64,000 bases of DNA, taken from IMG/VR virus record IMGVR_UViG_2595698455_000001, positions 88,428 to 152,427 of that record. One strand, written 5' to 3'. This stretch comes from a virus. Taxonomy: Duplodnaviria > Caudoviricetes. Positions 39,881 through 43,196 of the stretch are shown in pieces. The translations under genes were made by a program, and so were the position numbers. Under the pieces are notes generated by a model, which had not been told where the DNA came from, ran no database searches, and was given only the letters and a program-made list of their open reading frames with translations. The stretch's first letter is position 1. Each line of letters starts with the position of its first letter.

Positions 39881-39993
39881 CGCTTTTGTCAATAAAGAAT
39901 CGTAGTAAATTTGTATGCACGGGGGGGTTATCCTAGTCTCGTAAGGTGATGCTCCTAACATTCAACAACTATCTTAACTAAGAGGACACAAAT

Positions 39994-40152
39994 ATGAAAA
40001 CTAAGAAATTGGTACTCAAACAAAAAACTGGTATGACTGCTTTTCCAGTAATTAAGCACATGCAGACCACTAACGTTTGCCCAACTTGCGGGCGGAGAGA
40101 CAACGACGGTGGCCCTATGTGTATGAAGACTTTTTGTGATGGGGGTAATTGA
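39994..40152 (+). CDS. Small Cys-containing protein (52 aa)
   Basis: Manual ORF, GAGGA RBS; CPTC..C...C. Confidence 0.5.
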   Translation: MKTKKLVLKQKTGMTAFPVIKHMQTTNVCPTCGRRDNDGGPMCMKTFCDGGN

Positions 40153-40302
40153 TCAAACAACACAGAAATAGAGATTTGGGAGAAATCCCATTGTGGAGGT
40201 TATGAATTAACTTGATTCATTATCTCACTATTTCTTGCCGGAAATAAGTATGATCAACGAGGAGAGGGCACGGTCTGTACCCTCTCCAAAATTTAAAGTT
40301 TT

Positions 40303-40328
40303 GTCAATAAATGGTAACAAAGTATAGT
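40303..40328 (+). promoter_or_regulatory. TCAAT-N14-TATAxT promoter ahead of the RNA island
   Basis: GTCAAT 40303-08, TATAGT 40323-28. Confidence 0.6.
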
Positions 40329-40334
40329 TAACCC

Positions 40335-41067
40335 ACTGAACGAAAGCTGTTAGGGTACTTGACAAACACTTGAGATTGAAGTTGTATATGATATATACCA
40401 GTTCAATTTTGTAACGCTCTCCACCCCAACAACGGTTTCCGTGGGCAGGGTGTGTTATCCGAAGGCATAGAGAGTCAATGCCGAGGCCGTCCGATGGCGC
40501 GTAAACGGGGTTAACCTGATCCCTCGATAAACCACGGATAAAACAGTGTCGTTACCTCGGCGTTAAGAGGAGCCTGGGTGAAGTGTTACTCTACGTTGGC
40601 GGGGCTATCAACCCCAATCTTGCCTCCGAGTGATACCAACCAAGCCTAGTTTGGTCCGAGCGTTAGAGGACAAGTAACTGAGAATAACCAGTTGCGAGTT
40701 GCAGCTTCGGTTGCAACTTTGATGGACTTGGAAACAGGTTTATGAAAGTTGTATCCAACCCGATCTTGCAAGCCCGTATCCCTGTATGGTCAAGACTTGC
40801 AAGTGGAAAGCCCTGGAAAAATAAACGCCTGTTGTGAGGCTATAGTGCGAGCCAATGACCAACAGAAGCGCGTTGCCGTGAGGCGCACAAAGAGGCCTGC
40901 ATGAACTGATCATGCACAAACGGGATAGAGGGTTGACAGTCCTTGGTTGGATGCACAATAGATTATGGGGCGATAGTTTAAGGGATAGCCGTCCGGACGG
41001 TAATTCCCCAGAGAGAACAGCTGGAGGCCAATCCAGCAGGTGAGGTGAAAAGCCTCAGACCCCGCCA
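40335..41067 (+). ncRNA. Large structured non-coding RNA, family unassigned; 5' end estimated from the promoter
   Basis: No credible ORF; many stems, cUUCGg and GAAA tetraloops, long-range pairs, ends GCCA. Confidence 0.7.
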
Positions 41068-41072
41068 ATTCA

Positions 41073-41261
41073 GTTCCCGTTGTATGGCAGTATCTCTGAA
41101 GCTCTTTCACCCGTGCAGATTGAGGCTGTAAGGTTAAATGAAGAGATAGGCTTGGATACAGGCGAACGTGAAGGTAGACATCTGAGTACCGGACTGCACG
41201 GACTGGGGAAGGTTGTTGAGAATAACGGAAGTTGGGGGTTCGACTCCCTCAGGGAACGCCA
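41073..41261 (+). ncRNA. 189-nt tRNA-like RNA
   Basis: GTTCCC/GGGAAC+GCCA acceptor, GGGGG-TTCGACT-CCCTC T-arm, oversized core. Confidence 0.75.
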
Positions 41262-41379
41262 AATATTGTTGGACTGCCAACATGCTCTGGTCTACGGCAG
41301 GCGAGATGGGATCGCGGGATTGAAATACCGCCTCGGGAGCACCTAAATAAACCAGTTGTTCAATAAACAATTGGTGAGT

Positions 41380-41565
41380 ATGATGAAATCATTCAGTGAT
41401 TATCTCAATGAATGTAACGACGAGCCGATGGTTGAGTTCGTCGAAAAGCGCGGTGACAAGTGGGTTGTTCTTGACCACACTAAGACGAAGGTTCTTGGTA
41501 CACATGACACCAAAGCTGGCGCTGATTCCCAATTAAAGGCGATCGAAGCGAATAAGTACGAATAA
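41380..41565 (+). CDS. Small protein with capsid-targeting-like leader
   Basis: MKSFSDYLNE leader; CTAAATA at 41343. Confidence 0.7.
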   Translation: MMKSFSDYLNECNDEPMVEFVEKRGDKWVVLDHTKTKVLGTHDTKAGADSQLKAIEANKYE

Positions 41566-41566
41566 A

Positions 41567-41643
41567 GATGGTGTAGTTCAGTTGGTTAGAACGTGCGACT
41601 CATAATCGCTTTGTCACTGGTTCAAGTCCTGCCGCCATCGCCA
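41567..41643 (+). tRNA. tRNA with CAT anticodon (Met or Ile2)
   Basis: Cloverleaf, GCGA-CTCATAA-TCGC anticodon arm, GGTTCAAGT, CCA end; T-stem imperfect. Confidence 0.88.
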
Positions 41644-41650
41644 GAATTAT

Positions 41651-41781
41651 GTCGGGTCTTACAGGATGAAATAGAGATCCTGTTTTGATGTACAAGGAAG
41701 CATATTATTCAAAGTGAACATATGATAGCTTTGAAGAAATGCAAACTAAAGATTAGGGTTTGAATCCCTCGCCCGACGGCA
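41651..41781 (+). ncRNA. 131-nt tRNA-like RNA, possibly degenerate
   Basis: GTCGGGT/GCCCGAC acceptor, AGGG-TTTGAAT-CCCT T-arm-like, ends GGCA. Confidence 0.6.
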
Positions 41782-41787
41782 AATAAT

Positions 41788-41892
41788 GGGTGTGAAACGA
41801 AAGCAAGTAAGCACGAAGTAAGCCAGCGACAGTCCTGTGTGACAGCTCCAGAGCCGAACGGAATCTGAACCCGACGAAAGTAACACCCACCA
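41788..41892 (+). ncRNA. 105-nt ACCA-terminated RNA
   Basis: GGGTGT/ACACCC terminal stem plus ACCA. Confidence 0.55.
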
Positions 41893-41960
41893 GTTTCAGA
41901 GTGTAAGAGCTGCAGTAGGTGCACCCCTGCGGATTGCTACACCGTACACTCTGATTCAAA

Positions 41961-42035
41961 TCTACTGTCACGTGGATTGGCTGAGGAAGGATGGCCGATG
42001 TCCTCGAGCGTGACCCAGCACGTGGCGGTAGACCA
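41961..42035 (+). ncRNA. 75-nt CCA-terminated RNA with a 13-14 bp terminal helix
   Basis: TCTACTGTCACGTG/CACGTGGCGGTAGA plus CCA. Confidence 0.6.
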
Positions 42036-42361
42036 AACACGGTAAGCGTTGCAGCCAGCTGTGTATAGGCCAGAAGGCACTGGTCGCCTTAACAGGCAGA
42101 TGAAATGCTCAATCGGGTGTGAAGCCCGTCCTTATTACGCTCGGTCAAGCAGTCTGTTTGTAGACGGTCGGTAAAGGTTTTGCAAGACCTAAACTGGCTA
42201 TCAAACGGATGAGGCGCGACTCTCTGGGTTGATCACCAGAGTACTGAGGTTCAACTCCCACTCACCCAGCCCAGATGGAATGGGTCCATCATCGCAAATC
42301 AGTGTTAGGGTAGTACCAGTGCAAAGTGTGTAGTCATTCAACCCATCCTCAACGATGTGGT

Positions 42362-42391
42362 AAGCCGGATATGGAAATCCGGCTTTCTTTT
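42362..42391 (+). terminator. Terminator closing the RNA island
   Basis: AAGCCGGAT..ATCCGGCTT followed by T-run. Confidence 0.8.
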
Positions 42392-42432
42392 GTCCGGTAT
42401 AAATAGATCTGAACTTGTACAGGAGGTGTATC

Positions 42433-42669
42433 ATGGCAACAGCCAAGTTTACTCTGAGTACAGGTACATGGACACAAGTCTCAGATGGCACATCATTGAA
42501 AACAATACAAGTGACTCAGGGTTCTGTGTATTTGTGCGACAGCCCAACCACGCCGAGTGCTTCCTCTCCGGCCCATACACTCTATCAAGGCAATATCGTT
42601 GTACTCACCCCACCAACAGTCGGATGGGTTAAGAGTGCGTCTTCTGCTTCCTCTATCATCGTGTCCTAG
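42433..42669 (+). CDS. Small Ser/Thr-rich, probably virion protein
   Basis: TATAAATA upstream, AGGAGG RBS. Confidence 0.75.
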   Translation: MATAKFTLSTGTWTQVSDGTSLKTIQVTQGSVYLCDSPTTPSASSPAHTLYQGNIVVLTPPTVGWVKSASSASSIIVS

Positions 42670-42677
42670 GAGGAGTC

Positions 42678-43196
42678 ATGGCCATTCTACCTTCTCCTTA
42701 CCTGGGTAATATGCTCCAGACACACCGCATCAAAGTTGAAGTGAGGTTCTCTGGACTCACGGCGGCTTTGCCTGCTGGAGCGACTGGTGTTGATCTCTTA
42801 ACGTTGTTGGATGGCAAAACACCACATCCTGCTTCCGTGACTGGGTTAGCCCCTTTCTTCAAATTGTCGGATCACAAGTTCCATGCATTTCCGGTCGATT
42901 CCATCTTGCCTGTCAAGGTGAACATCATCGGGACATGGTCTGGGTCGACATCCAACCGAACAATGTTGCTGGACTTTGTCGGCTCCACTGGCAACCAGTT
43001 GTCAAAGAGCCGCGATTCCAGTTTACCGCCTCCGGACGTTCTCTCTTTCATCACGTTCTTCAGTGTTGACAAGGCAGGGAACCTCGTGACCAACGGGGCA
43101 CAGATGAAGTTGAACTCTTATGGTGGTGATTTCACTATCAACGAGATCATTTTGATCGCTGAGCAGGTTGTCCCTCTCTACATGAACACCATCTAA
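42678..43196 (+). CDS. Hypothetical, probably virion protein
   Basis: AGGAG RBS; same late unit. Confidence 0.75.
   Translation: MAILPSPYLGNMLQTHRIKVEVRFSGLTAALPAGATGVDLLTLLDGKTPHPASVTGLAPFFKLSDHKFHAFPVDSILPVKVNIIGTWSGSTSNRTMLLDFVGSTGNQLSKSRDSSLPPPDVLSFITFFSVDKAGNLVTNGAQMKLNSYGGDFTINEIILIAEQVVPLYMNTI

Follow-up and report, generated by a model that had tools for sequence, protein, structure and literature searches.

A string of structured RNA cassettes, one a new covarying RNA family, appears to fit the tRNA region of an Ackermannviridae-type phage better than a single 730-nt fold

In the tRNA region of an Ackermannviridae-type phage, a stretch described in an earlier note as one ornate non-coding RNA of about 730 nt appears, by comparison with related phages, to fit better with a string of separate RNA cassettes. 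The comparison makes a solid case for one of them, module B, as a new, well-supported RNA family; B measures about 215 nt and has eight helices, and the strands that join them hardly vary. Our reading, to which we give a probability of about 0.6, is that the front part of the tRNA operon is a polycistronic precursor of self-contained structured RNA cassettes. The earlier observation was therefore confirmed in part: its helices are present, and P1 and P7 of module B and the UUCG and GAAA hairpins are supported, while the outer helix that was to close the whole fold is not. Likewise, its interpretation stands as a non-coding structured RNA in a tRNA region, partly of a new class, and is not upheld as a GOLLD or ROOL or as one giant fold.

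The window analysed here, 64,000 nt long, forms the end of a 152,427-bp IMG/VR virus record with an estimated completeness of 97%. Both the non-coding stretch and its flanks have matches in Ackermannviridae phages of Salmonella, Klebsiella, Escherichia, Shigella, Enterobacter and Serratia, and judging from these matches the source is an Ackermannviridae-type phage of the Salmonella/Klebsiella type. They bear out the earlier assignment to an enterobacterial-type phage, in whose tRNA region the stretch lies. The flanking proteins matched solely families without known function in a PHROG search. With 40160-41370 as query, 268 phage records matched, none of them covering 80% of it, and BLAST against the relatives, which were taken from outside the genus Limestonevirus (HE600015), returned a mosaic of conserved and unrelated blocks. 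Among the 28 related loci first collected, B was present in all 28, C in 15 and D+E in five. The alignments of these loci reveal a cassette structure with tRNA slots (Table 1).

Module B was aligned with MAFFT over 24 distinct sequences, and the consensus comprised 50 pairs in nine helices, namely P1 to P8 and a 2-bp pairing within the P2 loop. Compensatory changes occurred at 14 of the 50 pairs, and 98.7% of the cells were paired. None of 500 column shuffles matched this, and only 0-1 compensatory pairs were left when the partners were slid by 1-3 columns. Module B therefore covaries, and it does so on the plus strand: conserved G-U pairs, such as U-G at 40814 with 40922 in 24 of 24 sequences, indicate that the plus strand is the RNA strand, as had been proposed from the G-U pairs. 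Two of the helices noted earlier belong to this module. The pairing of TGTATCCAACC (40750-60) with GGTTGGATGCA (40945-55) is P1, with compensatory changes in 4 of 11 pairs, and the TGCATGA/TCATGCA hairpin is P7, whose closing pair, among the 24 sequences, is U-A 16 times and C-G 8 times. The P6 loop is of the GNRA type (GUGA). The near-invariant strands are AUCCC..U.UGGU.AAG in the P2 loop and GAAAAAUAAA and GGAAAGCCCUGGAAAAAUAAAC. The GGAAAGCCC of B resembles the GGAAAGUCC of RNase P, a likeness which we take to be superficial; the bacterial RNase P RNA models, with their conserved P4 regions, gave no match at E<=10. Compared with phage EspM4VN, identity was 94.9% in B and 93.6% in C, against 79.0% in the neighbouring protein gene. 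A pseudoknot between the AUCCC of the P2 loop and GGGAU near 40922 was considered and rejected, because the Vibrio phage copy lacks GGGAU and keeps P3 by a compensatory change.

A covariance model, R1, was built from module B. It scored the window at 264 bits, the window being one of its source sequences, and found one B copy per phage. The independent members scored 270 bits (L032), 223 bits (L175), 40.7 bits (L036) and 32.9 bits (L033). The copy in Vibrio phage K476 (32.9 bits, E about 1e-10) ends 4 nt before a tRNA in sequence where BLAST finds no similarity, and the copy on an unrelated 70-kb IMG/VR viral contig (L036) lies in an intergenic gap and is equally invisible to BLAST. Vibrio phage K386 gave a weak match of 12.1 bits. 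When the distant members were added, 37 of the 50 pairs were compensatory versus 6-11 in the slid controls, in an alignment that was fitted to the model and so leans towards the structure. A loose-pattern search of IMG/VR gave nine new loci, one of them real. A loose pattern of 19 fixed bases was also run on genome and metagenome contigs, and in both scans the best 80 of at least about 120 matches were searched with R1. Among the matches listed, one of 80 was real on genome contigs (L086, a 526-bp scaffold and probably phage carry-over) and one of 80 on metagenome contigs (L175), figures which say little on the range of B. A BLAST query taken from K476 together with its tRNA was swamped by tRNA matches.

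Modules A' and C are conserved companions of B. Loci of Kuttervirus, Taipeivirus and Agtrevirus share conserved pieces of A' in front of B. The UUCG and GAAA hairpins that had been noted earlier as local structures are both kept in relatives, and in the latter, the last hairpin of A', the base is kept and the tip varies. Kuttervirus loci have C by itself, with a tRNA on either side. In 11 sequences, compensatory changes were seen at three of the 28 pairs of C, a variation too low for a real covariation test, and TGAGG/CCTCA was invariant in 11 of 11 sequences, which says nothing for or against that helix. The first hairpin of C (40988-41001) is a perfect palindrome with a CCGG loop invariant in all 11 sequences; such a hairpin could in principle form an intermolecular duplex.

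Table 1. Features of the stretch and its surroundings, in window coordinates
Feature	Position	Strand	Remarks
Promoter-like site TTGTCA-16-TATAGT	40301..40328	+	10/12 consensus matches; would start transcription near 40335
Conserved 5' leader	40335..40371	+	aligns in most related loci; sequence just 3' of it does not
Orphan block U	40372..40629	+	no homologue; contains helices at 40411-40589, 40438-44 with 40532-38, and left arm 40596-604
Module A', row of hairpins	40630..40743	+	fold z-score -3.23; 1/200 shuffles as good
A' hairpins	UUCG about 40696-40719; GAAA 40722-40743	+
Module B, multi-helix RNA of ~215 nt	40745..40960	+	covariation, model R1, fold z-score -3.42
B helices P1, P2, P3	40750-60/40945-55; 40761-72/40796-806; 40812-15/40921-24	+
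B helices P4, P5, P6	40829-33/40861-65; 40838-41/40850-53; 40875-77/40882-84	+
B helices P7, P8	40898-904/40910-16; 40929-32/40941-44	+
Module C, cloverleaf-shaped	40965..41070	+	fold z-score -2.24
C closing stem; hairpins	40969-72/41063-66; 40982-41008, 41020-41037, 41039-41061	+
Module D, putative tRNA-like cassette	41073..41261	+	3' end and slot
D acceptor 5' strand; discriminator G; CCA	41073-78 with 41252-57 (6 bp); 41258; 41259-61	+
D T arm	41234-50	+	GGGGG-TTCGACT-CCCTC, canonical
Module E, conserved spacer after tRNA or D slot	41262..41348	+	widely conserved
tRNA-Met (CAT)	41567..41643	+	downstream; ARAGORN and Rfam; the phage's only tRNA
Terminator-like hairpin and T run	42362..42395	+	9-pair stem; possible operon end, membership presumed

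The main rival explanation is a single giant RNA akin to GOLLD and ROOL, into which the sequence from the leader to C (or E) would fold and as which it would act. Such an RNA might self-assemble; its 5' half would be variable and its 3' half conserved, with tRNAs nested in the linkers. The four long-range helices and the local hairpins on which the idea was founded are all present in the sequence exactly where they had been placed. Folding of the 736 nt was more stable than that of dinucleotide shuffles (z -4.0 on the plus strand vs -2.9 on the minus strand), the minimum free energy fold includes the outer 9-bp helix, and no tRNA interrupts 40335-41072 in this phage. Inverted repeats of 7 nt numbered 27 against 14.3 +/- 4.9 expected, a count reached by 1.2% of shuffles. 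However, the outer helix (40596-604 with 41060-68) was at chance level: two perfect 9-mer inverted repeats were observed vs 0.88 per dinucleotide shuffle, and 23% of shuffles have at least two. The other of the two repeats (40636 with 40942) was set aside as not conserved among relatives. The left arm of the outer helix falls in block U, for which there is no homologue, and of 17 related loci with C, 16 lacked the motif of this arm, GGYGGGG, in the upstream sequence (compared up to 2.5 kb, much less in some). The right arm has a conserved local partner that uses the same bases, GGCG at 40969-72 with CGCC at 41063-66. Both helices inside 40411-40589 fall in U as well. Furthermore, A', B and C, each taken alone, account for the folding excess, to which neither U (z -1.29; 26 of 200 shuffles fold as well) nor D (z +0.15) contributes. 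B and C are each closed by their own terminal helix, A' consists of local hairpins, and the cassettes are variously combined, 13 of 28 loci lacking C and most lacking D. With a closing helix that is neither above chance nor conserved, 250 nt of orphan sequence and conserved parts that are self-contained, one fold of about 730 nt is not supported, and we consider a single giant RNA rather unlikely.

Comparison with known RNA families points in the same direction. At gathering scores, Rfam found one tRNA in the whole window and nothing else. In 40100-41450, cmscan at E<=10 returned only SNORD12 (E 9.6, chance) and a 17-nt tmRNA T-arm match at 41234-50; beyond that fragment, none of the GOLLD, ROOL, OLE, tmRNA and RNase P models, the check proposed with the original observation, matched there at E<=10. 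The GOLLD model (RF01998), which covers the conserved 3' domain, also had no match at gathering score window-wide, and the ROOL model (RF03087) had none at E<=10, so that the suggested membership of either class was not upheld. The alternative suggestion of a new large RNA class survives by half, since part of the stretch matches no Rfam family and is a new class, while a large single fold is unsupported. ROOL, roughly 580 nt long with many pseudoknots, differs in this respect from B, which is about 215 nt long and in which no supported pseudoknot was found. In the part of a cryo-EM preprint accessible to us, GOLLD is presented as a large phage-encoded RNA of unknown function with a variable 5' region and a conserved 3' region, near tRNA islands and Met-tRNA and sometimes with tRNAs within its linker, and ROOL as a highly structured phage or prophage RNA, often near tRNA islands and without known protein partner. 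As far as that part of the preprint goes, the stretch shares with ROOL that it is structured phage RNA near tRNAs, and its layout parallels GOLLD in the variable 5' part, the conserved 3' part, the tRNA-island location, the Met-tRNA and the tRNA nested in relatives (between B and C), which is context only and not family-defining. Because GOLLD, by the same account, carries tRNAs in its linker, nested tRNAs alone do not exclude one large RNA. In contrast to GOLLD, there is no sequence or structure match at E<=10, and the units here are small, self-closed and variously combined, with no conserved helix that joins them. Descriptions of this RNA were not found in the literature on ncRNAs or transcriptomes of Ackermannviridae, Kuttervirus or Viunalikevirus, or on structured RNAs of phage tRNA clusters, a search that stopped short of the candidate tables of PMC10690425. 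That study, in the portion available to us, is a catalogue of viral RNA candidates of 29-151 nt (Fremin et al., 2023; PMC10690425), which may include pieces of this RNA.

Upstream of the modules, the block 40289-40371 was conserved at 82-91% in relatives. The start of transcription predicted from the promoter-like site, near 40335, coincides with the start coordinate given in the earlier note; five promoter-like sites were found in the region vs 3.9 expected, and the site at 40301-28 is weak by itself. A motif, TTGTCAATAAA (TTGTTCAATAAA at 41356), stands ahead of three plus-strand units, at 39886, 40301 and 41356, and only the copy at 40301 passed the promoter scan. Directly upstream of the promoter-like site, a GC-rich hairpin at 40258-40288 (GGAGAGGG...CCCTCTCC) may end the transcript of the preceding small genes; it was unflagged by the terminator scan because no T run directly follows. 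Block U had no match in the phage collection, in E. coli genomes or in plasmids, nor did an exact 21-mer from it match IMG/VR, and relatives hold 700-1700 nt of unrelated sequence at its position. Within these variable blocks (L002:1565-1714; L003:2346-2455; L001 ~2072; L002 ~2028) there are matches below threshold to permuted tmRNA (29.4 bits) and to STnc100 (33.7 bits), and also T-arm-like GGTTCGA.TCC motifs that ARAGORN did not call as tRNA. The variable blocks of relatives may be further tRNA-like cassettes.

The tRNA genes of the relatives fit between the cassettes. Most relatives have a true tRNA-Met between B and C and another tRNA in the slot of D. May and EspM4VN carry an insert of 76-90 nt, a tRNA, precisely at the junction of B and C; P46FS4 and the window lack it. 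Module D substitutes for a tRNA-Met base for base between CCCCGCCAAT... and ...AATAT(T)GTTGGACTG: two loci (L011, L013) have a true tRNA-Met in exactly this slot, and in another (L019) D is missing and C joins E directly. The identity of D as a tRNA-like cassette would rest on this slot and on its 3' end, where it encodes GCCA. Module D has an acceptor stem, a T arm and an NCCA end but neither a D arm nor an anticodon arm, which is the layout of the tRNA-like domain of tmRNA and recalls viral tRNA-like structures. The T arm matched the tmRNA model over 17 nt with 11.3 bits (E 0.045; gathering score 47). Unlike tmRNA, however, D has U-A at acceptor position 3-70 in place of the alanine identity pair G3-U70 and shows no recognisable tag reading frame in its 189 nt. 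ARAGORN -m found no tmRNA even at a relaxed threshold, and neither Rfam (RF00005) nor ARAGORN matched D as a tRNA. An intron-bearing tRNA was rejected as well, because ARAGORN with introns was empty at the default threshold and made scattered low-score calls at relaxed ones. On our reading of the alignment, the substitutions in D have no 3-base period.

Module E is more widespread than D: a D+E query matched 85 phage records, most of them over E only. Eight distinct sequences of E were aligned and gave one possible compensatory change, E varying too little for a real covariation test. An alifold structure of D+E that paired the 5' strand of D with E was discarded, since D occurs without E in SeF3a and the structure had a positive covariation term. 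The segment 41237-41330, which holds the T arm of D and E, matches a separate group of 143-147-kb Klebsiella phages (KpS8, KB57) at about 78%, which suggests that this cassette is shared beyond the Ackermannviridae. Downstream of the tRNA, 41645-42678 adds about 1 kb with short ORFs only; within it, 41774-42037 and 42032-42140 match the spacers that flank tRNA-Tyr in EspM4VN and P46FS4, and the tRNA itself is missing in the window. From such comparisons, tRNAs seem to be lost and gained exactly at the borders while the spacers stay.

We propose that the precursor would run in the order leader, orphan block U, A', B, C, tRNA-like D and spacer E, with B as its functional core. In relatives, host tRNA-processing enzymes would release the cassettes as separate stable RNAs, since true tRNAs lie between the cassettes and tRNA processing would free them; the RNase P cut at the 5' end of a tRNA would at the same time make the 3' end of the preceding cassette. 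This phage has lost all tRNAs but one and retained the cassettes. Here the leader, U, A', B and C (about 40335-41072) may stay joined in a single RNA of about 740 nt whose 3' end would be set by an RNase P cut at the tRNA-like 5' end of D. Together with a start near 40335, such a cut would explain the coordinates of the earlier note without a global fold. Transcription, RNase P processing and any role are what we infer; as to the role, a trans-acting stable RNA that aids phage translation, tRNA metabolism or host defence is a weak guess. A similar route is followed in phage T4, where species 1 and 2 (rnaC, rnaD), small stable RNAs of unknown function, are encoded in the tRNA gene cluster, co-transcribed with the phage tRNAs and matured by the tRNA-processing machinery. 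The cassettes are likened to these RNAs by description and not by sequence, B being larger and from another phage family.

The position of B also permits a reading in which it is a cis-acting leader of the adjoining tRNA-Met, that is, a sensor or processing element for tRNA maturation, folding or release. B ends 0-12 nt before a tRNA in phiMAM1, IME250, May and the Vibrio phages K476 and K386; wherever the record gives the identity of this tRNA, it is tRNA-Met. The nearly invariant strands between the helices of B are like those of junction RNAs that bind ligands or RNA, and the invariant UGGU of the P2 loop could in principle pair with the ACCA end of a tRNA, a possibility drawn from 4 nt. 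However, the window and P46FS4 have no tRNA after B, and yet B is about 90-95% identical to the relatives. The contig L036 has B with no tRNA within its 11-kb locus, which indicates that the linkage of B with tRNA is not universal. T-box and riboswitch families had no match at E<=10 in 40100-41450, and no terminator or other expression platform follows B. We therefore hold a cis-acting leader to be improbable. It is a similarly long shot that A', B and C with nested tRNAs form one RNA machine of a new class, either a self-assembling, tRNA-presenting scaffold like GOLLD or ROOL or, in the case of B, a ribozyme or sensor directed at tRNA-Met.

It could further be argued that the stretch is what remains of a decaying tRNA cluster, spacers and dead cassettes without a function of their own, conserved through recent common descent. 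The phage has one tRNA and one B and has lost all its other tRNAs, U is an orphan, neither U nor D has a folding excess, and cassettes are gained and lost between relatives. In addition, the region can be absent altogether. When the neighbouring 190-aa protein was used as query, one close relative was returned, Yersinia phage CAU_YEP3 (L031), the closest by this protein (80.5% amino-acid identity), and the whole RNA/tRNA region is missing from it, with about 460 nt left between the 190-aa gene and the tail completion gene; the region is therefore accessory and dispensable in at least one phage. Nevertheless, decay cannot hold for B, given its compensatory pairs, its conservation above that of the flanking gene and its Vibrio phage copies in otherwise unalignable sequence, and A' and C fold better than shuffles. 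That A', B, C and D were kept beside a single tRNA also argues that these cassettes are not mere tRNA spacers, and we find decay of the whole quite improbable.

Between about 40160 and 41355 the ORFs are short and overlapping only, with none of at least 30 aa inside 40366-40645. Very improbable indeed is the reading that the stretch encodes small proteins, for which speak the ORFs of 31-88 aa in the window and the 30-78-aa 'hypothetical proteins' annotated across the homologous region in the public records of May (L001), FKP10 (L007), SeF3a (L045) and P46FS4 (L003), because those ORFs lie on both strands at positions that are inconsistent between records, SeF3a labels its own as PHROG singletons, the B alignment has 1-2-nt indels that would break any reading frame, and base-pair covariation with G-U is the pattern of RNA. 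These annotations are probably spurious calls over a structured RNA. The shortness of the ORFs, the indels, the covariation and the G-U pairs agree with what had been claimed at the outset, a non-coding structured RNA on the transcribed plus strand.

Phage tRNA islands hold structured RNAs without a known function, such as GOLLD, ROOL and the T4 stable RNAs, a long-standing puzzle; to these RNAs module B adds a compact and strongly covarying member. Since Ackermannviridae are easily grown and engineered on laboratory hosts, deletion, probing and structure work are within reach. For annotation, the public genomes leave 1-3 kb blank here or fill it with dubious 'hypothetical proteins'. Gain and loss of tRNAs exactly at the cassette borders hint at a modular building of phage tRNA operons. 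If the doubtful RNA machine, as a scaffold or as a tRNA-directed B, were true, it would be the first of its kind among those Ackermannviridae of Salmonella, E. coli O157 and Klebsiella that are used in therapy.

Of 23 sequencing runs listed, just one contained at least half of the sampled words. Four runs were compared, and one of them (X1) matched the window with few or zero differences, in four pieces of low depth. Two RNA-library runs (X22, X23) carried the B-tRNA-C-tRNA order of a relative on long metagenomic contigs of 5.6 and 4.0 kb, which say nothing on transcription, ends or processing. In Klebsiella phage FKP10, a second and degenerate R1 match (45.6 bits) lies at 1524-1759. It adjoins a duplicated block of tRNA-Met, tRNA-Arg and a small ORF that is repeated at an exact offset of 1000 bp, and either a terminal repeat or a duplication made in assembly may account for this.
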